A DNA stretch of 64,000 bases from Patescibacteria group bacterium. GTDB lineage: Bacteria; Patescibacteriota; Minisyncoccia; Phycocordibacterales; JAKAEA01. The position numbers and the translations under genes were made by a program. This document shows positions 1-61,242 of the stretch, in pieces; positions within the stretch are counted from its first letter, which is position 1; each line of letters starts with the position of its first letter. Below the pieces are notes generated by a model. That model was not told the origin of the DNA and ran no database searches. It saw nothing but the letters and a program-made list of their open reading frames with translations. The stretch spans positions 632,793 to 696,792 of the forward strand of contig JAZKCY010000001.1 in assembly GCA_040387855.1 (NCBI GenBank), read 5' to 3'.

Positions 1-242
1 CGCGTGGATGGTTCTTCTACTTCCACCTGCATTGGTGCTCATACCCGTTTCTCGGACTATTGCTACTCACGACATTTGTGTTCCGGGGCGTGAGTACTAA
101 AGAGGACGAGGATACCGTTTCATGCATCTGGATTTGGTGGAGGAATATCCTTCACAAATTCAGTGCATACACGACGATCCTTTTCGGCCTCGCAAGCATG
201 GTCACCGGCATCGTTCTTCTTATTCAGCTCAAGCAACCCTAG
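1..242 (+). CDS. 3' end of a membrane-protein gene entering from the left window edge (partial)
   Basis: Frame +3 is open from position 3 to a TAG at 240-242 and ends in a hydrophobic segment (…ILFGLASMVTGIVLLIQLKQP). G+C is visibly higher than downstream. A weak hairpin plus T-run follows at ~225-255. Confidence 0.3.
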   Translation, partial: RGWFFYFHLHWCSYPFLGLLLLTTFVFRGVSTKEDEDTVSCIWIWWRNILHKFSAYTTILFGLASMVTGIVLLIQLKQP

Positions 243-274
243 CGGGTGCTTTTTTATTTATATATACTAGAGTC

Positions 275-598
275 ATGATTTTAATTACTCACATTATTGC
301 ATCTTTCATAGGAATTATTGGAGCATATCTTGAAGGTTATGCATTCTTCAAAAAGCTGCCTGGTGTTCAGGCTATTGCTACAAAAATAGCATGGATAGGC
401 CTTATCATTCTTTTTATCACAGGCATCTTTTTGTTTTTGGGTGATATTCCAAAATATACTCAGTCTGTTAAATTTATTTCAAACATGTCTGTATTGGCAA
501 TTCTTATAGTGAATGCACTACAAAGAAAAAGCACACGAACTGTGTGCATTTCTCTAATCTGTTGGACCTGGATTCTATTTATCGCTGTGTTCGTCTAA
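275..598 (+). CDS. small polytopic membrane protein (hypothetical)
   Basis: AT-rich part of track ORF 122-598. Uses the internal ATG at 275 and has 3-4 hydrophobic helices. No clear SD. Overlaps the convergent RR gene by 24 nt. Confidence 0.35.
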   Translation: MILITHIIASFIGIIGAYLEGYAFFKKLPGVQAIATKIAWIGLIILFITGIFLFLGDIPKYTQSVKFISNMSVLAILIVNALQRKSTRTVCISLICWTWILFIAVFV

Positions 599-4133: not shown

Positions 4134-5798
4134 TTACAATTCTTGGTTATAAATATTCTCTTTTGCTGGTGCAACTACGCGTAATAGTTCTTCTAAAGTA
4201 GTAATTCCATTTTTAACCTTAATCAATCCGTCATCAAACATTGAATGAGCTCCTTGTGACTTAGCCATTTTCCAGACTTCTTGAGTAGATGGACTCTTTA
4301 AAATAAGACTCTGCAATTCTGGTGTTGTATATACTATTTCAAATACAGCTATTCTTCCCTTAAAGCCTGTTGAATTACACAGTGCACATCCCTTCCCTCT
4401 ATAAAGTGTTACTGATTCATTTGAGAAATATCTTTCTGGATTATCAATAATTTTAGTAAGCTCTTGATGAGTACTTACATAGCTATATCTACATGCATCA
4501 CAAATTTTCCGAACTAATCTTTGTCCAATTACAATTTCAAGTGTTGAAGAAAGTAAGAATGGCTCTATACCCATATCTAAAAGGCGTGGAAAGGCCGTAG
4601 CAGCATCATTTGCATGAAAGGATGACAATACTAAGTGACCAGTAAGTGCTGCGTTTGCAGCTATTTCTGCTGTTTCTTTATCTCTAATTTCTCCCACCAA
4701 AATAATGTTTGGATCTTGTCGAACAATTGATCGCAACCCCTGAGCAAATGTTAGGTGACTATTCTCATTTACCTGAATATGATTTACACCTGGGATTTTA
4801 TATTCAACAGGATCTTCGATAGTTGTAACGTTTACATCAGGTCTATTGAGCATTTTTAAAATACTATAGAGCGTTGTCGTTTTTCCAGATCCAGTGGGAC
4901 CAACTGTCAAAATAAGTCCGAACGGATTTTTTGCAATCTTCATGATGAGCGCCTGATCCTCAGACGAAAGACCCAGTTCTGTAGTTGAAAGATTCTTTAC
5001 ATATTCAGACAACAAACGAATAACTATCTTTTCTCCATCAATAGTTGGCACAATAGAAATACGTAGGTCTACATTCCGATCATTATGCTTTAATCGAATA
5101 GCCCCATCTTGTGATGCAGTATGTTCATCTGTCGATAGATTTGCTCGAAGTTTTACAACACGAAGTACATTTGCATATGCGTCCTTAGGGATCTCAGCTA
5201 CTTGTTCAAGCATTCCATCTATACGGAATCGCACTCGTACAATAGTTTCTCCAGGTTCAAAGTGAATATCTGATACCTGAAATGACATAGCATCGGCTAA
5301 AATTTCTTCTATGATACTTGGAGCAACCGTCTTTTGCTTAAGAATCTCTGCAAATCGTACTTCAAGCTTTTTCTGAGATTTTAAAATAATATTCTCTATG
5401 TTTTCACTAAAAGTGTATGCATATTTTATTTTTGCTCCGGGAAAAATACGGCTAACAACCATAGGATCTAGATCCTTTGGATTATCTGTAGCAATAGTAA
5501 TCTGATTATCCTCTTTTGCGATTACTACAATATGTGAATGTCGAGCAATAGGTTCCGGTATAAGATTTATATACTCTTTAGGAACATTCTGAGGAGTTAT
5601 AGCAACAAATTCAATACCATATGATTCTGCAATGGCTTGTCCGAGCAAATCTCTTGAAAGATATTGTTCACGGATAAGGTAATCTATGAAGGAAATATTT
5701 TCTTTTTTTGCATTTAATTCAGCTTTAGTAGCATCATCAACTGAGATATAGTTTTGCTTTAAAAGAATATACTTTACATTTGCCTCATCTAATCTCAT
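4134..5798 (-). CDS. pilB: type IV pilus assembly / type II secretion ATPase (PilB/GspE family)
   Basis: Walker A is GPTGSGKTTT, with Asp and His boxes. A C-terminal tetracysteine motif (CDAC…CALC) and an N-terminal GSPII_E_N-like domain are present. Confidence 0.9.
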   Translation of the reverse strand: MRLDEANVKYILLKQNYISVDDATKAELNAKKENISFIDYLIREQYLSRDLLGQAIAESYGIEFVAITPQNVPKEYINLIPEPIARHSHIVVIAKEDNQITIATDNPKDLDPMVVSRIFPGAKIKYAYTFSENIENIILKSQKKLEVRFAEILKQKTVAPSIIEEILADAMSFQVSDIHFEPGETIVRVRFRIDGMLEQVAEIPKDAYANVLRVVKLRANLSTDEHTASQDGAIRLKHNDRNVDLRISIVPTIDGEKIVIRLLSEYVKNLSTTELGLSSEDQALIMKIAKNPFGLILTVGPTGSGKTTTLYSILKMLNRPDVNVTTIEDPVEYKIPGVNHIQVNENSHLTFAQGLRSIVRQDPNIILVGEIRDKETAEIAANAALTGHLVLSSFHANDAATAFPRLLDMGIEPFLLSSTLEIVIGQRLVRKICDACRYSYVSTHQELTKIIDNPERYFSNESVTLYRGKGCALCNSTGFKGRIAVFEIVYTTPELQSLILKSPSTQEVWKMAKSQGAHSMFDDGLIKVKNGITTLEELLRVVAPAKENIYNQEL

Positions 5799-5808
5799 GG
5801 TAAATAAA

Positions 5809-6186
5809 TTACACTACATGAAGAAACTCTTTGATTGTTTCTATTATTTTTAATAATGGCGTGTTTGATTTGATAAGATACCCCTGCGCTCCCAATTCTC
5901 TGGCTTTTTTCTCATCTTCCTGCTGACTTAAATTTGAAGTTACAAAAATAGGAGTAGTGTTACCCTTTTCCTTAAGTTCAGCAAGTACTCCAAATCCATC
6001 TTTTTTTGGAATAACAAGATCGAGCAATACAAGATCATATGAATTTGTAAGAATATGCTCTAACGCGGCTTCTCCATCATGGGCAACATCGGCATCAAAT
6101 CCAGAGCTTTTTAATTTTAATTCAAGAGCATGAGCCATTGGCTTCTCATCTTCCACAACAAGTATTTTTTTCTTTAGTTCTGACAT
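5809..6186 (-). CDS. single-domain response regulator (receiver)
   Basis: Begins MSELKKKILVVEDEKP; LVLLDL carries the phospho-Asp. The track ORF extends to 6300, but that extension overlaps a separate zinc-ribbon ORF in another frame, so I use the internal ATG at 6186. Confidence 0.8.
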   Translation of the reverse strand: MSELKKKILVVEDEKPMAHALELKLKSSGFDADVAHDGEAALEHILTNSYDLVLLDLVIPKKDGFGVLAELKEKGNTTPIFVTSNLSQQEDEKKARELGAQGYLIKSNTPLLKIIETIKEFLHVV

Positions 6187-6263
6187 GTATCGAAGTATAC
6201 CATGACGAAAACACAGTCTCGTATGAGACTGTGTATATCGTTGACTTTGATTAAAGAAATATG

Positions 6264-6431
6264 TTACGCGTGAGCTTCTTTGGCCATGCACTTCACACAA
6301 ATCTTTTGTTCAGGTCGTGTCTTAATATATTTGTTTGCACAAGCAGAGCAAACCAAAATTTCAGAACGCGTAGGCTTGTGTACCCACTTTCCATCTCGCT
6401 GAAATGTTTTTGTTGGTTGTAGTTTAAGCAT
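6264..6431 (-). CDS. 55-aa zinc-ribbon protein (CxxC-x14-CxxC)
   Basis: Hand translation gives MLKLQPTKTFQRDGKWVHKPTRSEILVCSACANKYIKTRPEQKICVKCMAKEAHA. It is absent from the ORF track (too short) and sits between the helicase and the RR on the same strand. Confidence 0.5.
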   Translation of the reverse strand: MLKLQPTKTFQRDGKWVHKPTRSEILVCSACANKYIKTRPEQKICVKCMAKEAHA

Positions 6432-39945: not shown

Positions 39946-40302
39946 CTATGTGTTTTTTGCTATAAGTGCATCAAGTTTTATGAGATCGAATGGCTTTGGC
40001 AAGTATGCACTTGCTCCATACTTATCAGCGATAGCTTTTCCATCTTTACTAGCTGTTACTACTATTACAGGAATATCTTTTGTTTCATCTGAAGCTTTTA
40101 ATTTTTGTAATACTTGTTCACCGTTTAAGATAGGCATCCATAAATCAAGTAAAACTATATCGGGTTTTTCCTCCTTAATTTTTGCGAATATTTCTAGGCT
40201 GTGAAGTACTGGTATCACTTTATAACCATGTAGGTCTAATACAATAGAAATTGAGTCAAGGATTCCCTCATCATCATCACAGACCATGACACATTTTTTC
40301 AT
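39946..40302 (-). CDS. single-domain response regulator (receiver)
   Basis: VMVCDDDEG acidic pocket and IVLLDLWMP phospho-Asp. It starts right at the HK stop. Confidence 0.85.
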   Translation of the reverse strand: MKKCVMVCDDDEGILDSISIVLDLHGYKVIPVLHSLEIFAKIKEEKPDIVLLDLWMPILNGEQVLQKLKASDETKDIPVIVVTASKDGKAIADKYGASAYLPKPFDLIKLDALIAKNT

Positions 40303-41844
40303 TTAATTATTGTTTAACGGAATAGTAAAGCTAAATGTAGATCCTTTGCCTGGCTCGCTATCAACCCATAGATGTCCTCCATGTCTCACTACGATTTGCT
40401 CACTTATATACAATCCAATGCCCATACCAGCAAACTGTTTTTGAGCATCCTCAACTCTGAAAAATCGCTCAAACAATTTCTGCTGATCTTTTTTATTAAT
40501 ACCAATTCCCTGATCAGTGACCATTATTTTTAGGTAATCACTCACACGTGATGCATGAACCACCACATCCTTTCCATTGGGAGAATACTTGATTGCATTA
40601 TTTAATAAATTGTTGAGCACCATTTCCAATCTTTCTTTATCTCCATTAACTTTCAAATTGAGATCACCTGAATACTTGATTGTATGGTGCTTTGCTGCTG
40701 ACTGAACAAGATCAATGGATTCTTTAATCATCTGGTTAACATCAAATTCAGCATATTTGTATTCTATTTTACCCGCCTGAATCTTAGACACATCTAGTAA
40801 ATCGCTGATAAGACTTTCAAGCTTTTTTAATGAAACATTCGTTTTCTCAATAATCTCTAAGTTTTTCTCTGTAGTACTCTTCTTACTTTTAATAAGAATT
40901 TCTAATACTTGCAGATACGCTTTAATACTTGTTACTGGTGTCTTGAGTTCATGACTTGCAATACTGAGAAAATCATCTTTTCTAATTTGAACTTCTCGCA
41001 ATTCTGTAATGTCCTCAATAGCTAACAAGATTATCTCTTCTGCATTCTCCAATGCCTCAATTTGTCGGGCATTCAAAAGCATCACTTTCTTTCCAATCTG
41101 AGGGAAATTGTGTTCTACCTCAAAATTCTCAAACGGATTCTGCTCAGGTAGGATCTTTTCAAACAGATCTCTCAAGGCTTTTATATCCCACTGTCCGTTA
41201 CCAAGTTTAAATATATTTACACCGACAGTTTCTTCCTTTGAAACCTTAAATGTACTGTAAAAGTACTTATTTGCTGAGATTACGTTTAGTGATTTATCCA
41301 GCACGAGCAAGCTCTCACGCATTGTTTCAAAAATACCTGTGAGAAATGCTTCACTTTCTTTCAAGTTTTGAGTTCCGTCAGCTACTCTTTTCTCTAAAGA
41401 TTCACGTTCATTTTTTAATGCTGCCTCAGCTTTTTTCCGACGAGTAATATCATTTTGAACCCCAATAAAGTGGGTAATATCGCCTTTTTTATTTCGGACT
41501 GGAGACATCATAAGCTCATTCCAAAATAATGAGCCATCCTTTTTATAGTTTCTTAATTCCACTTTGCAATCAATACCTTTTTCAATTGATTCTCGCAAAA
41601 TTCTTCGAGCTTCTTGATCTCGATCATCTCCTTGAAGGAATCTACAATTCCTTCCTATTATTTCGTCACGTGTATATCCACTAATAAATTCAAAGGCTCG
41701 ATTACAGAAAATAATTGGATTGTCTGGCTGAAGGCAATCTGTAATTACAATTCCGTTTGTAGTTGCATCTACTGCATTAATGAGTAAATTAAGATTTGAA
41801 GTAACATCAATTTTATGAATTGAAGCCTGTTTAATATTTTTCAT
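40303..41844 (-). CDS. cytoplasmic PAS sensor histidine kinase
   Basis: Two PAS modules. H-box ASHELKTPVTSI; N-box LNNAIKYS; G-box GMGIGL. Confidence 0.9.
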   Translation of the reverse strand: MKNIKQASIHKIDVTSNLNLLINAVDATTNGIVITDCLQPDNPIIFCNRAFEFISGYTRDEIIGRNCRFLQGDDRDQEARRILRESIEKGIDCKVELRNYKKDGSLFWNELMMSPVRNKKGDITHFIGVQNDITRRKKAEAALKNERESLEKRVADGTQNLKESEAFLTGIFETMRESLLVLDKSLNVISANKYFYSTFKVSKEETVGVNIFKLGNGQWDIKALRDLFEKILPEQNPFENFEVEHNFPQIGKKVMLLNARQIEALENAEEIILLAIEDITELREVQIRKDDFLSIASHELKTPVTSIKAYLQVLEILIKSKKSTTEKNLEIIEKTNVSLKKLESLISDLLDVSKIQAGKIEYKYAEFDVNQMIKESIDLVQSAAKHHTIKYSGDLNLKVNGDKERLEMVLNNLLNNAIKYSPNGKDVVVHASRVSDYLKIMVTDQGIGINKKDQQKLFERFFRVEDAQKQFAGMGIGLYISEQIVVRHGGHLWVDSEPGKGSTFSFTIPLNNN

Positions 41845-56090: not shown

Positions 56091-56537
56091 TTACTCACAT
56101 CCCCATCCATCATTGTCTCGGTCAAGATCAAATTCATCATAGCCGAGTACCTGTACTTTCCCAGTATAATTTGGTCCATTGCCTGATCCGCTTCTACAAT
56201 CATAATCCCCGGCGCCAATTTTCAAACATCCAGAATAATTTGTATTACATACAGGTTCTGATTTCGGTTCAGGTGGAGGAACTGGTTTTGGAGTCGGTGC
56301 AGGAGTTGGAGTAGGTACTGGTGTAGATTCAGGTTTTGCTACGGATTGAGCAACAGGTTTAACTTCTGGTGGTATTGCTGGCTCCTTTTTTACTTCAGGT
56401 GTTTTTTCTGCAGCCTGATTCTGAAAAGGCATCACTACAGCTGCTGGCTGAGGTGATTGGACTGCTGAGGTATCTGACATTCCAGCCATTACAACAAACG
56501 CACCAATGATTCCTGCTCCAATAAGTAGTTTTTTCAT
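56091..56537 (-). CDS. secreted Pro-rich protein with C-terminal Excalibur calcium-binding domain
   Basis: Signal peptide, PTPTPAPTPKPVPPP linker, then CNTNYSGC…DYDC…DRDNDGWGCE (the Excalibur DxDxDGxxCE loop). Confidence 0.7.
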   Translation of the reverse strand: MKKLLIGAGIIGAFVVMAGMSDTSAVQSPQPAAVVMPFQNQAAEKTPEVKKEPAIPPEVKPVAQSVAKPESTPVPTPTPAPTPKPVPPPEPKSEPVCNTNYSGCLKIGAGDYDCRSGSGNGPNYTGKVQVLGYDEFDLDRDNDGWGCE

Positions 56538-56546
56538 ACAAAGACT

Positions 56547-58109
56547 TTATCTCGAATTTAAATTTCTTTTAAAATATTCTCTAAGATCAGGATCAACTAT
56601 ATATACATATGTACCTAGAATACCTCGAGTTAATAATGTCTTATAAATATTAATCACATATCTTTTTAACTCTTCAGGATCATTTACCCCTCTATGTCCA
56701 TTTGTATCGTGATATTTATTTTTATTAACAGATATTTCTTTTCTTACTGAGTCATAATATATTTCTGGACCAATAATCACACCTGTGTAATTTAAATCAT
56801 ACCCTTGAATTGTATGAATACATCCCACCTCATTAATTGAGTTCTTTGAATTAACCCAATCATGAATTTGAGAATTCCAAAATAGTTTAGTGTTCTCAAT
56901 TACAATATCAGGAATACCTTTATTAGTTTTTGAAATCCACCTCCAGGCATACCCTGCAACTAATCTACTTATCTGATGCTCTTTATCTTTCTCTTTAATA
57001 TCCTCAACCATCTTATCTAGATCATCATATATCTTGAAATCATAATCTGAAAAATTAGCTTTTACATCTACTTTTGCTTCTAATAATTTATCAATGAAGT
57101 CTATGTACTCTTGTCCCCCTTTTACTCTCATCTGTGTCTTCAATTCAAAGCTGATTGGATTTGTTTTAAGCACTTTTGTCATTGAGACATCTGAAGGACG
57201 TACTGATTGCCGCTCATCATAAAAAAGCACAACATGTTTTGCTGATTGGACTATCCAATCGAGTTCTGTGCCTTCATTGTCCAATCCCAACTTTCTATTT
57301 GTGGCGTCAAAGCTTCCATAATTTGGAATGTTTTTTCTCTGACGTAACCGGTGGGTTTCATCTACAACTACTATGTCATATTGCTTTTGAGTTATTTCAT
57401 TAGGGCCTATCACCATTGATGAATCGAGACCAGGAATACTTCTAAACACTTTTTTGAGTGTTTGTCTTAATGAGGTCATTGCAATCACTATAGCAACATT
57501 TGTATTTCCAAGTTCAACAAGTCTTTTTATAAGAAAAGTAGCTAGAATTGTTTTACCTGTACCTGGTCCGCCATGAATAATATAAGTTTGCTTTTTATCT
57601 TCCTTGAAATACTCAAGGAGCTTCATCGCTATTAAATACTGATCATCGGTAAGTGTTTTATATGGTGAGTATTTAAAAATATCGCTATTTCTAATTTGAA
57701 GAAGATCGTTTTTTGCTAGCTTTTTTTCCTGAAGTGTCTTCCACAAAAGTTCAAATTTGGTTTTATATCTTTCTCTATCAAAATAATCATGATTCTGAAG
57801 ACCTGCATTTCCATTTTGTAGAATGTACTGTCCATCAGCAACCATATATTCAATGAGAGAAGATTCAGTATCTAGAGTTGCAGACTTGTTAAACTCATCA
57901 TCAGATATGATATGAATTTTATTTAATTGTTTTCTACTTTGATTATCTAAATGTTGTTTAGTACGACTATATACGCGAACGGTCTCACCGACATAGAGTT
58001 CTTTTCCATTTTCTATAAGATACACTACAGGCCAGCCACTTCCATACTTGGAGGTGCGTATTGTTTCAACTCCAGCTTGATCAAAAGGAAATGTCTTTAT
58101 GTCAGACAT
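56547..58109 (-). CDS. GIY-YIG nuclease domain fused to DUF2075 / Schlafen-like P-loop ATPase
   Basis: The N-terminus VVYLIENGKELYVGETVRVYSRTKQH is a GIY-YIG core. The central region has GGPGTGKT (Walker A) and VVVDETHRL (DExH-like Walker B), in the DUF2075 arrangement. Confidence 0.8.
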   Translation of the reverse strand: MSDIKTFPFDQAGVETIRTSKYGSGWPVVYLIENGKELYVGETVRVYSRTKQHLDNQSRKQLNKIHIISDDEFNKSATLDTESSLIEYMVADGQYILQNGNAGLQNHDYFDRERYKTKFELLWKTLQEKKLAKNDLLQIRNSDIFKYSPYKTLTDDQYLIAMKLLEYFKEDKKQTYIIHGGPGTGKTILATFLIKRLVELGNTNVAIVIAMTSLRQTLKKVFRSIPGLDSSMVIGPNEITQKQYDIVVVDETHRLRQRKNIPNYGSFDATNRKLGLDNEGTELDWIVQSAKHVVLFYDERQSVRPSDVSMTKVLKTNPISFELKTQMRVKGGQEYIDFIDKLLEAKVDVKANFSDYDFKIYDDLDKMVEDIKEKDKEHQISRLVAGYAWRWISKTNKGIPDIVIENTKLFWNSQIHDWVNSKNSINEVGCIHTIQGYDLNYTGVIIGPEIYYDSVRKEISVNKNKYHDTNGHRGVNDPEELKRYVINIYKTLLTRGILGTYVYIVDPDLREYFKRNLNSR

Positions 58110-58112
58110 ATA

Positions 58113-58460
58113 TTAAAGCTTAGTATACTTATCGGATTTTCCTTTTGCTTTTTCTACAGAATACTTTGCTTCATTCTGCTTCATTTTTTCCTCAAACAGT
58201 TTTTTAATATCTAAACCTAGATCATGTGACATTAGAAGCACCCAATACAATACATCAGCAAGCTCTTCACCGACTTTATCTTTATTCTCCACAAGATAAT
58301 TTTCAATATCACCTTCTTTTTTCCATTGGAAATGTTCTAGTACTTCTGTTGCTTCCAGAACAAGTGAGAGCGCCATGTCTTTTGCATTATGAAATTGCTT
58401 CCAGTCTCTTTTGTCTCTAAAGTCAACTATTCTTTTTGTTAAATCCTTAATTTCAGACAT
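58113..58460 (-). CDS. MazG-like all-alpha NTP pyrophosphohydrolase
   Basis: ALSLVLEATEVLEHFQW and ELADVLYWVLLMSHDLGLD match the small MazG/NTP-PPase family. Its stop lies 3 nt before the downstream start. Confidence 0.75.
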   Translation of the reverse strand: MSEIKDLTKRIVDFRDKRDWKQFHNAKDMALSLVLEATEVLEHFQWKKEGDIENYLVENKDKVGEELADVLYWVLLMSHDLGLDIKKLFEEKMKQNEAKYSVEKAKGKSDKYTKL

Positions 58461-59586: not shown

Positions 59587-60648
59587 CTAACCTAAAAACT
59601 CAACTTCAAAAACATGATGACTATAAGGGTAACCTGAGTCATTTTTTATGAATCCTGTATTTACAACACTAATCTTTGCTTTCATGTAACTCAATGCTTT
59701 TCTTACAATATACAGACCAATACCTGATCCATTTTTACTTATTTCGCTTTTAATACCATTTTTTATATTTCTTCCTTGTCTATTTTCTAGAAATATAATT
59801 TCTTCTTCATCTTTTTCAATTGAGACACTGTCCATTGAAATTGATATTTTCTTTTGTTTCAATGCTAAATCTCCAGAAATATCTATTGTAGTATCATTTA
59901 ACACATACTTACATGCATTATCGAGGATCTGCCAAATCGCAGCATTAAACAAACTATGAACAATATTTATTTTATTTCGATCGCTGTTTTGAAGATTTAT
60001 TCTAATATCAACATTCTTTTTTTTAAGTTCATCAATAAAAGGATTGGTTAAACGATACAATGCTCTTTCGATATTTGTAGGCAATAATGTGCCAGTATTA
60101 TCAGCATATCCTCCAATGATTCTAAGTGTTTCAATTTGTGCATCTAAATCAATTGCTCTATGTGACATCTGGCATACATCATCTGCAGCTGCACTTGTAT
60201 TTTCCTCGATTCTTCGTTTAACTTCTCTAGTAAATTCAGCATAGGGTCTAGCTCTTGCCTTATCAGAAATTAAACGTACAAAATTATTTTTGAATCTATT
60301 TTGAAACTTTATTAAATTATGTGAAAATCTCCTAATAATTGCGTCAAATGATTGTCTTTGACCAACTTCAATTTCCTTAAATTTTGGAATTAAACTTAAA
60401 TAAATACTACAAGCTCTTTGGATTGCTTTACTGCCTTGAAATAAGTCAGCATTCTCATCAACTATTAGCTGAATTGAACCATTTGCATTTTCTCTAAAAG
60501 CATTTTTTAAACCTTTCTGAGAAAAATTTTCTCGATTGTTTTTACTAAAAATATCAGGCAAAAGATCTAACTGACCGTGTCTTGCCACAATATTTCCTTT
60601 AAAATTTCGTAACTCATAAAAAATAATTCCTTCACTATTTTGATTCAT
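59587..60648 (-). CDS. histidine-kinase-like ATPase with novel N-terminal region (atypical HK)
   Basis: The C-terminal has an N-box-like HSLFNAAIWQILDNACKY and a G-box GSGIGLYIVRKAL. A possible HisKA_2-like H-box is SHRAIDLDAQ. The N-terminal 200 aa is unassigned; no TM. Confidence 0.6.
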   Translation of the reverse strand: MNQNSEGIIFYELRNFKGNIVARHGQLDLLPDIFSKNNRENFSQKGLKNAFRENANGSIQLIVDENADLFQGSKAIQRACSIYLSLIPKFKEIEVGQRQSFDAIIRRFSHNLIKFQNRFKNNFVRLISDKARARPYAEFTREVKRRIEENTSAAADDVCQMSHRAIDLDAQIETLRIIGGYADNTGTLLPTNIERALYRLTNPFIDELKKKNVDIRINLQNSDRNKINIVHSLFNAAIWQILDNACKYVLNDTTIDISGDLALKQKKISISMDSVSIEKDEEEIIFLENRQGRNIKNGIKSEISKNGSGIGLYIVRKALSYMKAKISVVNTGFIKNDSGYPYSHHVFEVEFLG

Positions 60649-61141
60649 ATTTTTTTATAGCTGCTACCTCAATTTGGTCAATATAAACATACGGATCTGA
60701 ATGTTTGTCAATCCATGCATTCGCGAATGAATGAAATTCATGTCCTGGAATATAACCAGCATGCCCAGAATAAAATATGAGAAATTTTTCTGGATATCTG
60801 CTCTTTATTTTTTTTAGCAAACCGATTCCCTCTTCTGATGGGGTTAGGATTTTACCCACTCCGATGTAATCCATAAATATGATGTCAGCATTTTTTATAT
60901 CTTCTGAATCAAAATTAGTCACATCTTTTATTTGCTGAACATTCCATCCTGCACCTCTAATAATATTCAATCTCGTAGAAAAATCTTCATCATCAACAAA
61001 TAATACCTTTGTTGAACGTTTGATTTCTTCAATTGATGGTATCTTTTTTTTAGTTAAAACTTTTTTTAACCAATTTCCAGTTTTGTCCATTCCTACACCA
61101 ATAAATACTCCCGCCAGCTTTGTAGCTGCAATTTCCCACAT
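60635..61141 (-). CDS. receiver-like (REC-fold) protein with ~45-aa N-terminal extension
   Basis: KVLFVDDED (acidic pair), IIFMDY (candidate phospho-Asp), LIFYSGHA, WIDK. It overlaps the HK-like gene by 14 nt. Confidence 0.5.
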   Translation of the reverse strand: MWEIAATKLAGVFIGVGMDKTGNWLKKVLTKKKIPSIEEIKRSTKVLFVDDEDFSTRLNIIRGAGWNVQQIKDVTNFDSEDIKNADIIFMDYIGVGKILTPSEEGIGLLKKIKSRYPEKFLIFYSGHAGYIPGHEFHSFANAWIDKHSDPYVYIDQIEVAAIKKYESK

Positions 61142-61171
61142 GGTGATTTATATTATTCTATTCTTACTATG

Positions 61172-61242
61172 CTGCGGGACTAGGACTCGAACCTAGATAC
61201 TCAGGACCAAAACCTGATGTCCTACCATTAGACGATCCCGCA
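61172..61242 (-). tRNA. tRNA-Gln: tRNA-Gln (anticodon UUG)
   Basis: Hand-folded cloverleaf. Acceptor TGCGGGA/TCCCGCA with U1:A72 and G73 discriminator; D-stem GTCT/GGAC; anticodon stem TCAGG/CCTGA with loop TTTTGGT; T-stem CTAGG/CCTAG with loop TTCGAGT. No encoded CCA. Confidence 0.85.

Follow-up and report, generated by a model that had tools for sequence, protein, structure and literature searches.

The window analysed here, a stretch of 64,000 nucleotides from a Patescibacteria genome, carries two overlapping genes, hereafter A and B, that on profile matches are a new patescibacterial member of PDC-M43, a catalogued family of candidate phage defence systems. A codes for a receiver domain preceded by a short helix, and B for a soluble protein resembling histidine kinases. 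The folds and catalytic residues, the strict pairing of the two genes, their co-divergence and the mobile or defence-type contexts of the family are matters of observation. The explanation that we prefer, and to which we give about an even chance of being right, is that the locus forms a two-gene phosphorelay, self-contained and horizontally mobile, in which the membrane-tethered receiver would itself be the output, with an abortive-infection-type or addiction-like function.

The assignment to the family comes from PADLOC. Protein A matches the PDC-M43A model PDLC04646 (E 2.9e-32, residues 29-163) and two more PDC-M43A models, and protein B matches the PDC-M43B model PDLC04647 (E 4.2e-31, residues 40-351) and three more PDC-M43B models; neither protein matched any other model of the library. 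PDC-M43 is one of the 145 PDC systems, or phage defence candidates, of PADLOC-DB v2, where it is listed as cassette CAS_00151 (FAM_00604>>FAM_02649, supplementary file 8) and was defined in RefSeq genomes by genes that lie inside BREX, DISARM or type I RM systems (10.1101/2024.01.29.577857). The literature search found it in no main text, and it is known just as a listed candidate; where the DefensePredictor and BREX-landscape papers speak of HATPase or REC, the context is a different one.

Both reading frames lie co-directionally on the minus strand, exactly as the initial annotation had them, and the positions of their features are given in Table 1. The overlap is a putative case of translational coupling, and overlaps of 8-20 nt between A and B are found again in nearly all related loci. 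The tRNA-Gln gene just upstream of A is flanking context and not part of the conserved module, likely as an island insertion site or on a shared transcript; five other loci have a tRNA-Gln upstream of A at a distance of no more than 6 kb. No direct repeat of its 3′ end that could delimit an island was found within the window, and scans for promoters and terminators gave no more sites than shuffled sequence. The neighbours of the pair in the window include a MazG-like gene and a GIY-YIG-Schlafen-type helicase with Nhi/AbiO-like matches. Two downstream ORFs of 108 and 227 aa were considered as third and fourth components and rejected, as BLASTP against the neighbours in three other loci found nothing; they have no match in Pfam, PADLOC, NCBIfam or PHROG.

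Table 1. Positions of the gene pair and its features in the window
Feature	Position	Strand	Description
Gene A	60635..61141	minus	ORF, 168 aa; N-terminal helix and single receiver (REC) domain; PDC-M43A
A residues 1-35	61037..61141	minus	cationic N-terminal helix of moderate hydrophobicity, MWEIAATKLAGVFIGVGMDKTGNWLKKVLTKKKIP; putative anchor in the membrane or effector segment
A residues 37-168	60638..61033	minus	receiver domain; AF2 fold, invariant residues
A D50/D51	60989-60994	minus	acidic pair; codon positions checked
A D91	60869-60871	minus	phospho-acceptor; codon position checked
A S125	60767-60769	minus	codon position checked
A K146	60704-60706	minus	codon position checked
Gene B	59587..60648	minus	ORF, 353 aa; soluble histidine-kinase-like protein; PDC-M43B
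B residues 1-86	60391..60648	minus	small alpha/beta N-terminal domain, five strands and two helices; presumed sensor
B residues 87-180	60109..60390	minus	DHp helical hairpin, helices 87-126 and 136-179
B H110	60319-60321	minus	phospho-acceptor, in RRFSHNLIKFQ; invariant across the family
B residues 189-353	59590..60084	minus	CA (Bergerat-fold) domain; N box D243-N244-x-x-K247-Y248, G2 box G309-I-G311, non-canonical G1 box M272-x-S274
A stop/B start overlap	60635..60648	minus	14 nt, ATGAATCAAAATAG; sequence read directly
tRNA-Gln(UUG)	61171..61242	minus	ARAGORN; ends 29 nt upstream of gene A

Protein A has the canonical receiver fold with a complete catalytic quintet. Its AF2 model (pLDDT 82; 85-97 on average in most 10-residue blocks of REC) shows a (beta-alpha)5 fold over residues 37-167, and the best Foldseek matches in the PDB are CheY-like receivers (3crn, E 1.8e-8), with further matches to the receivers of NtrX, PorX, PmrA and RR468. 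D50, D51, D91, S125 and K146 are invariant both in an alignment of 32 sequences (A2) and in one of 20 (A6) that includes four proteobacterial plasmid copies. This bears out the acidic pocket and the candidate phospho-acceptor in IIFMDY that had been read from the sequence, D50, D51 and D91 being invariant in the 32 homologues. The unusual context of beta3 was likewise rightly noticed: the beta3-alpha3 loop (D91-Y-x-G-V95-G96...L99-T-P101) is conserved and about six residues longer than the CheY-type D-x-x-M-P. Pfam returns no family at E <= 1 for A, hence no Response_reg (PF00072), and no close A-family match carries a precomputed Pfam domain. A lacks an enzymatic or DNA-binding output domain, and the architecture of helix plus REC is constant in the family, another output domain being found in 0 of 97 members.

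The N-terminal extension that the initial annotation saw on the receiver is a helix of about 35 aa before the REC domain. Such a segment is present in all homologues with a net charge of +2 to +7, and it varies in sequence (28% mean identity versus 63% for REC); AF2 places a helix at residues 3-29 with low confidence. Hydrophobicity differs between clades. A TM-grade segment is found in 71% of the proteobacterial members (median KD19 1.83) versus 12% of the window-like homologues (median 1.13), and the window copy has a KD19 of 1.03. The helix is thus clearly predicted to be transmembrane in most proteobacterial relatives; since it is weakly hydrophobic in the clade of the window copy, insertion of this copy into the membrane is uncertain. 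Lysine and arginine are concentrated after the hydrophobic stretch (3.4 versus 0.2), which would place the REC domain in the cytoplasm. A holin-like reading of the N-terminus was set aside, TIGR01594 giving only a sub-threshold match (E 0.055).

Protein B combines a DHp helical hairpin with a Bergerat-fold CA domain. Sequence profiles do not recognise its HisKA region, as had been remarked: Pfam does not match HisKA (PF00512) and, at E <= 1, gives only a weak HATPase_c hit (32 bits). The N-terminal stretch without assignment is shorter than the 200 aa first proposed. It covers about 85 aa, residues 87-180 being the two DHp helices, and it forms a small domain predicted with high confidence (mean pLDDT 90-95 for the blocks of residues 11-70). 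Searches of Pfam and of PDB sequences gave nothing significant for this domain, the search with a family profile included, and B is nowhere less conserved than here (mean pairwise identity of 39%, versus 68% for DHp, among close homologues). The weak H-box in SHRAID proposed as the phosphorylation site does not hold, because five of 30 close homologues have L, N or Q in place of H163 (60160-60162). The invariant histidine is H110, conserved in 166 of 166 sequences within a HisKA-like F-[SA]-H-N-L motif and aligned with the H-box histidine of WalK, in a local alignment that is not significant on its own.

The ATP pocket was described in the initial annotation as having clear N and G boxes. This is true of the N and G2 boxes, where N244, at the Mg-ATP ligand position, and K247, Y248, G309 and G311 are each conserved in 166/166 sequences, and the F-box Phe is present in 140/166; it is not true of the G1 box, whose DxGxG, with the Asp that binds adenine, is replaced by M272-x-S274. 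M272 is found in 160 of 166 sequences, otherwise being Thr or Ser and never Asp, and S274 in 165. Profile-to-PDB alignments place M272 opposite the G1 Asp of SrrB, HK853 and WalK, and S274 opposite the first Gly. The residue following H110 is Asn in 138 sequences, Thr in 18, Ser in 6, Ile in 2 and Ala in 1, so that the five commonest residues, covering 165/166, include neither Asp nor Glu. As judged from these alignments, B is non-canonical in two ways, by the replacement of the G1 Asp by Met and by the lack of an acidic residue after the phospho-His, and these family-wide losses are the truly odd features of the protein, missed at first reading. The near-invariance of M272 and S274 speaks for contact with a specific ligand and not for decay. 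Because the nucleotide pocket is non-canonical in G1 and after the histidine, the phosphodonor or the kinetics of B may differ from those of ordinary kinases.

The pair stands apart from the ordinary two-component genes of the window, as had been claimed; these score 50-107 bits on the HATPase_c, HisKA and Response_reg models, the kinases among them reaching 57-62 bits on HisKA. The ordinary regulator-kinase pattern was said to occur four times in the window: three canonical receivers and two kinases are confirmed, an exhaustive set of four pairs is not. Of the two things that the initial annotation would have weighed against its own reading, standard profile hits are absent, which favours it, and the partnership is strongly conserved in relatives, which does not. 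The link to phage sensing at which it hinted would be compatible with the match to PDC-M43.

A lies directly before B in 18 of 18 further loci, the genes overlapping or abutting, and the divergences of the two proteins are correlated (r = 0.83 for 24 contig-matched pairs). The distribution is patchy, with copies in Patescibacteria, Auribacterota, a Bdellovibrionaceae bin, Vibrio, E. coli, Kosakonia, Shewanella and Burkholderia. Four proteobacterial plasmids carry the pair; one carrier, a Rop-type plasmid of 6.2 kb, has few other genes, and on IncF and other plasmids the pair lies close to HigBA. An E. coli copy is on pZ1322MEC0001-2 (NZ_CP148569, 52495-54157), and Kosakonia copies are on pa82 unnamed2 and in NZ_CP069322. 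The flanks are unrelated between loci, and no conserved target gene accompanies the pair among the loci compared. Defence or mobility genes are often adjacent: ThsB-TIR, a caspase, ArdC and a serine recombinase at one locus; at others cNMP-TIR, Mrr and DUF3800; NACHT, DUF3800, IS3 and Tn3; DUF262 and HigA; a methylase, an integrase and IS91; or a recombinase with Rep at a tRNA-Glu. Some flanks are purely housekeeping (DprA/TopA, V-ATPase/purine genes, tctCBA/amiA), defence neighbours are absent at the V. cholerae locus, the tctA-amiA site, and at loci L006 and L017, and many copies on chromosomes stand without mobile-element genes near them. A tblastn search of a phage collection with B gave no match, nor did the IncF plasmid copy against complete E. 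coli genomes in near or distant mode, and the BFVD viral fold search returned only generic histidine kinases of giant viruses and phages.

Which way the phosphoryl group moves, what triggers the relay, and whether it acts at the membrane and against phages we infer as follows. B would be a soluble sensor kinase whose small, fast-evolving N-terminal domain takes in an intracellular cue. H110 in its DHp domain would be phosphorylated and the phosphoryl group passed to D91 of A. Phosphorylated receivers would then dimerise or oligomerise, clustering their N-terminal helices and disturbing membrane integrity or a membrane partner, and the infected cell would arrest its growth, in abortive-infection-type defence or an addiction-like function. 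An output at the membrane is most likely because the only non-receiver feature of A is its hydrophobic, cationic helix, transmembrane in most proteobacterial relatives by prediction. The pair has no recognised toxic effector domain, which counts against this model. Single-domain receivers with ordinary regulatory roles, such as CheY and DivK, are common, and the pair could be of this sort, the soluble kinase controlling a receiver that regulates a membrane protein or process of the host through contact between proteins. All the phosphotransfer residues are intact, single-domain receivers are the rule among the ordinary two-component genes of the window (132, 163 and 118 aa), and the V. cholerae, L006 and L017 copies sit amid housekeeping genes, all of which would fit. 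However, one would not expect of such a pair a sporadic distribution across phyla, plasmid copies down to that on the 6.2-kb plasmid, ever-changing flanks often adjoined by recombinases, IS elements and defence genes, or the lack of a conserved target gene alongside, and we regard an ordinary role as unlikely.

The missing G1 Asp and acidic residue after H110 make autophosphorylation of B with ATP doubtful, and B might instead be a phosphatase, phosphotransferase or scaffold, with A phosphorylated by donors like acetyl phosphate or by another kinase and the module reading metabolic state. This too seems improbable, given that the invariant N-box Asn, Lys and Tyr and G2 glycines, with the largely conserved F-box Phe, indicate purifying selection of a working nucleotide pocket, a pattern not known from pseudo-CA domains of the Spo0B/ChpT type, and given the almost invariant M272 and S274. 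A plasmid or island addiction system of toxin-antitoxin type, in which B activity would keep a membrane-active A in check and A would turn toxic once the element was lost or B shut off, would suit the small Rop-type plasmid and the IncF and other plasmids near HigBA, as well as the tight overlap of the genes and the small hydrophobic peptide with which A starts. Differential stability of A and B is not in evidence, though, and many chromosomal copies lack nearby mobile-element genes, so that we consider it very unlikely; it overlaps the abortive-infection reading rather than excluding it. A bolder version of the phosphorelay that we prefer, and quite an unlikely one, is that the pair would be a two-component module of immune or abortive type, the smallest that is self-sufficient, with a single membrane helix as its sole output, disruptive once phosphorylated receivers oligomerise, and that its Met/Ser pocket would be adapted to a non-ATP phosphodonor or to sensing an infection-associated nucleotide. 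The catalytic domain of B would then itself be part of the sensor.

Should PDC-M43 prove to work in defence or addiction, two-component phosphotransfer could drive cell fate without an enzymatic effector, the principle of Detocs would extend to a two-gene minimum, and such a system would be placed in Patescibacteria, a group with few known defence systems. The Bergerat-fold Asp is replaced throughout the family while the rest of the nucleotide pocket stays invariant, a clean natural test of the role of that residue in histidine kinases. Easily clonable family members in E. coli, Kosakonia and Vibrio cholerae make these questions directly testable.

Compared with class I HisKA kinases (CusS, HprS, HK853, WalK), B differs in having no Pfam HisKA match, Asn instead of Glu or Asp after the histidine, an MxS G1 box, neither transmembrane segments nor HAMP, and a unique sensor domain of 85 aa. 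A resembles single-domain response regulators (CheY, DivK, Spo0F) in its fold, its full quintet and the lack of a C-terminal output domain; it differs from them by its N-terminal hydrophobic or transmembrane helix, its extended beta3-alpha3 loop with the conserved G-V-G, and a divergence too great for PF00072. The closest precedent for an immune function is Detocs, a phosphorelay of histidine kinase and receivers whose phospho-His and phospho-Asp are required for defence; its three genes code for the kinase DtcA with an N-terminal TPR sensor, the buffer receiver DtcB and the receiver-effector DtcC, in which the receiver is joined to an enzyme domain, PNP in 80% of cases, and transmembrane effectors are a minority (10.1101/2023.01.24.525353). 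The window pair is likewise a phosphorelay of kinase and receiver, its immune use being our proposal, but it has only two genes, with neither buffer receiver nor enzymatic effector domain, and the N-terminal domain of its kinase is a five-stranded alpha/beta unit instead of TPR. Relative to the PDC-M43 systems as catalogued, the window copy is found in a Patescibacteria MAG and not embedded in BREX, DISARM or type I RM, and its clade is divergent (16-30% identity to proteobacterial members), with a shorter and less hydrophobic N-terminus of A. It shares with them two adjacent genes on the same strand in the order A>>B, and the Kosakonia plasmid copies match the same models as the window copy, more strongly than it does.

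The receiver-type gene A and the histidine-kinase-like gene B have 14 nt in common between the stop of A and the start of B (ATGAATCAAAATAG), and both products are 100% identical to deposited proteins of a Patescibacteria-group MAG. In PADLOC, A matches PDC-M43A (E = 2.9e-32) and B matches PDC-M43B (E = 4.2e-31), and neither matches any other model. HMM matches and gene order place the pair in PDC-M43, and hence make it a new, divergent representative, from a Patescibacteria clade, of a catalogued, uncharacterised candidate family. PDC-M43 corresponds to cassette CAS_00151 (FAM_00604>>FAM_02649), one of 145 "phage defence candidates" put forward on the ground that their members occur within BREX, DISARM or type I RM loci (10.1101/2024.01.29.577857). 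It is not named in the text of any paper in the literature searched. The Pfam search gives no match for A and only a weak HATPase_c for B (32 bits, residues 236-328), and NCBIfam gives B sub-threshold kinase matches only, mainly over the catalytic domain. Because the ordinary two-component proteins of the window score far higher in Pfam, the contrast drawn in the initial annotation between them and the pair is real. The initial annotation holds up in part, and so does its interpretation. The pair is neither an artefact nor an ordinary two-component pair, and its family is already catalogued as a defence candidate. The three canonical receivers of the window are also short and single-domain (132, 163, and 118 aa), without DNA-binding output, and two of them adjoin PAS-HisKA kinases.

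Features of the window, of protein B, and of other loci carrying the pair
Feature	Position	Strand	Remarks
A	60635-61141	-	ORF, 168 aa
B	59587-60648	-	ORF, 353 aa
B, N-domain	residues 1-86		small α/β, five strands and two helices (AF2); 10-residue blocks over 11-70 average pLDDT 90-95
B, DHp helices	residues 87-126 and 136-179		two long helices (AF2)
B, C-terminal α/β domain	residues 189-351		AF2
Orphan ORF, 108 aa	59247-59573	-	downstream of B
Orphan ORF, 227 aa	58550-59233	-	downstream of B
MazG-like pyrophosphatase	58113-58460	-	directly upstream of 520-aa protein
520-aa protein	56547-58109	-	N-terminal GIY-YIG nuclease motif, Schlafen-group-3/DUF2075 helicase domain
148-aa protein	56091-56537	-	N-terminal hydrophobic segment, Pro/Lys/Glu-rich repeat, C-terminal sub-threshold Excalibur-type calcium-binding motif
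Ordinary receivers	575-973, 5809-6300, 39946-40302	-	Response_reg 50-78 bits
Ordinary kinases	989-2842, 40303-41844		HisKA 57-62 bits, HATPase_c 103-107 bits
tRNA-Gln, window	61171-61242	-	29 nt from A
tRNA-Gln, L001	5363-5434		73 nt from A
tRNA-Gln, L010	600-672		209 nt from A
tRNA-Gln, other loci	L003 3603-3676; L008 917-988; L023 2232-2306		1.8-5.2 kb from A; one on opposite strand
Similar sequence after tRNA-Gln	L001 5435-5480; L010 673-715; L003 3677-3713		...GTATCG.G..TGACCG.A.AGCCTA...
GIY-YIG proteins	L003 3714-4416; L016 85-369; L023 7157-7402; L026 4948-5202

A is a bona fide receiver by predicted fold and catalytic residues, though the Pfam profile failed to recognise it. Its AF2 model (pLDDT 82) has the canonical (βα)5 fold over residues 37-167, and its best Foldseek matches in the PDB are CheY-like receivers, NtrX, PorX, PmrA, and RR468 (E from 1e-8 to 1e-6). 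A has 54 close homologues, a set that a profile search enlarged to 97. The complete catalytic quintet (D50, D51, D91, S125, and K146) is invariant in the alignments (32 and 20 sequences), the four proteobacterial plasmid copies included. The unusual β3 context (D91-Y-I-G-V-G...T-P101), already remarked upon in the initial annotation, is borne out as a conserved β3-α3 loop about 6 residues over the usual length, in which V95, G96, and L99 are invariant. Residues 1-35 are predicted by AF2, at low confidence, as a helix. An equivalent segment is found in every homologue, variable in sequence (28% identity versus 63% for the receiver) and cationic (net charge +2 to +7), its basic residues clustering just after the hydrophobic stretch (3.4 versus 0.2 before it). 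In proteobacteria this segment is, by the hydrophobicity score KD19, a clear predicted transmembrane helix with a polar linker behind it (the four plasmid copies score 1.84-2.13, and 71% of the clade at least 1.6); it is weaker in the clade of the window (median 1.13, window copy 1.03). No other domain is found in any of the 97 homologues.

B is a HisKA-type kinase by its modelled structure, a three-part AF2 model (pLDDT 84), and fails three sequence-level features of this type: the HisKA profile, the acidic H+1 residue, and the G1 Asp. H110, within R-R-F-[SA]-H-N-L-I-K-F-Q on the first helix of the DHp hairpin, is invariant in 166 full-length family members and aligns with the H-box histidine of WalK. 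The H-box originally put forward, SHRAID (H163), sits on the second DHp helix, and 5 of 30 close homologues have Leu, Asn, or Gln in place of its histidine; H163 was rejected as phospho-acceptor, being unconserved whereas H110 is invariant. Since the conserved histidine lies on helix 1, the unassigned N-terminus comprises about 85 residues instead of the 200 first supposed.

Residue counts for B refer to an alignment of 166 full-length relatives. These were drawn from an exhaustive profile search in which 454 representative clusters, almost all of 320-355 aa, had E < 1e-10. In HisKA kinases an acidic H+1 residue assists autophosphorylation. In B this position holds Asn (138), Thr (18), or Ser (6), with no Asp or Glu among the five commonest residues, which cover 165 of the 166 sequences. 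In the Bergerat fold, common to GyrB, Hsp90, MutL, and histidine kinases, the G1 Asp hydrogen-bonds adenine N6. The G1 box of B is not DxGxG: M272, aligned with the G1 Asp of SrrB, HK853, and WalK, occurs in 160 sequences (Thr or Ser in the others), and S274, aligned with the first glycine of the box, in 165. The pocket is otherwise kept (N244, K247, Y248, G309, and G311 in all 166, G292 in 163, F286 in 140), and PhoQ has the identical N box, LDNACKY. The N and G boxes had been described as clear, which holds for the N box and G309/G311 but not for the G1 box, which is non-canonical (MxS). The putative nucleotide pocket looks like a selected alteration rather than decay. B thus has a kinase fold, an invariant histidine, and a mostly intact pocket, and A an intact phospho-acceptor site.

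The N-domain is the most variable part of B: among close homologues its mean pairwise identity is 39%, where the DHp reaches 68%, and over the wider family none of its alignment columns is invariant. Its family profile has no significant match in PDB or Pfam. Its modelled strand-strand-helix-strand-strand-strand-helix order, leading into the DHp helix, gives the impression of a cut-down PAS-like sensor. Some distant members have Cys-rich motifs (CxxC...C...C) in this sensor domain, which suggests metal binding in some clades; B of the window lacks them.

All 18 further loci checked have a B homologue with an A homologue directly before it, and the two usually overlap by 8-20 nt. These loci lie on metagenomic contigs, of Patescibacteria among others, on E. 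coli (IncF), Shewanella, Burkholderia, and Kosakonia plasmids, and on the V. cholerae chromosome. The identities of A and B to the window proteins are correlated (r = 0.83, 24 contig-matched pairs). The pairing is strict, with translational coupling and co-divergence, and frequently stands in mobile or defence contexts. Flanks are unrelated between loci: tctCBA and amiA-like genes in V. cholerae; NACHT, DUF3800, IS3, and Tn3 on the IncF plasmid; and, in one locus each, DprA and topoisomerase I; a V-ATPase operon and purine genes; ThsB-TIR, caspase, ArdC, a large serine recombinase, and TrwB; cNMP-TIR, Mrr, and DUF3800; DNA methylase, integrase, and IS91; a serine recombinase and Rep abutting tRNA-Glu; DUF262 and HigA; and HigBA with diadenylate cyclase. 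The Kosakonia plasmid, of just 6.2 kb, has little beyond the pair except Rop, an HTH protein, and a few small ORFs. In the circular K. cowanii record (NZ_CP069322), B spans the origin (about 489..1 and 6175..5569), and the PLSDB gene table lacks it; once the two ends are joined, an intact 360-aa PDC-M43B results (E = 3.2e-64). In the Bdellovibrionaceae bin (L010), the B homologue at 1375-2406 could not be recovered as one ORF, the only one being of 183 aa at 1855-2406, and masked Ns lie upstream of A; either a pseudogene or a faulty assembly may account for this. Another recurring feature, seen in several Patescibacteria-type contigs, is small stand-alone GIY-YIG proteins (81-141 aa) encoded just upstream of the pair or in its vicinity; in L003 they come directly after the tRNA-Gln.

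Of about 16 independent chromosomal loci, 6 have a tRNA-Gln upstream of A. Because the tRNA sequences differ between hosts, this looks more like repeated insertion at such a site than like a tRNA carried along with the pair. A search of the window for a direct repeat of the tRNA-Gln 3′ end found none. The sequence following the tRNA is alike in a Minisyncoccia locus and the Bdellovibrionaceae bin, and partly in L003; this motif, absent from the window, may be a shared element border, or the Bdellovibrionaceae contig may be misbinned.

Downstream of the pair, the window has two orphan ORFs, the MazG-like gene, and the GIY-YIG/Schlafen-type helicase gene. The orphans, which follow B at gaps of 13 nt, probably share its transcript. 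Neither matches anything in Pfam, NCBIfam, PADLOC, or PHROG, and neither has a counterpart beside the pair in the three loci compared; therefore, the conserved unit is of two genes. The 520-aa protein matches Nhi, AbiO, PDC-S41, and PDC-S14 in PADLOC, and together with the MazG-like gene (56547-58460) it appears to make up a second unit of defence type within this small island. At its far side, the orphan-rich stretch ends with the 148-aa protein.

We propose that the variable N-domain of B would sense some cue and that B would control whether D91 of A is phosphorylated. The helix-tethered receiver would then act at the membrane, most simply if phosphorylation-dependent oligomerisation of receivers clustered the A helices, and would serve in defence of the abortive-infection type or in element addiction. 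This composite model has, in our estimation, an even chance of being right, its cognate phosphorelay being much more secure than its defence and membrane-effector parts. The loci and homologues examined have no third conserved gene and no output domain besides the N-terminal helix of A. Among the rival readings, an ordinary regulatory pair is unlikely. B might instead be a non-kinase acting as phosphatase or scaffold, which we find similarly improbable. A pure addiction module is more doubtful still.

The features deserving attention are the invariant Met/Ser G1 pocket and non-acidic H+1 of B, and the helix-only receiver A. The pair is not a Detocs member: Detocs has three genes and the pair two, and the TPR sensor, the buffer receiver, and the enzymatic effector, all features of Detocs, are absent from the pair. 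The likeness would lie in the kinase-to-receiver phosphorelay, which is an immune switch in Detocs and is proposed here for the pair.
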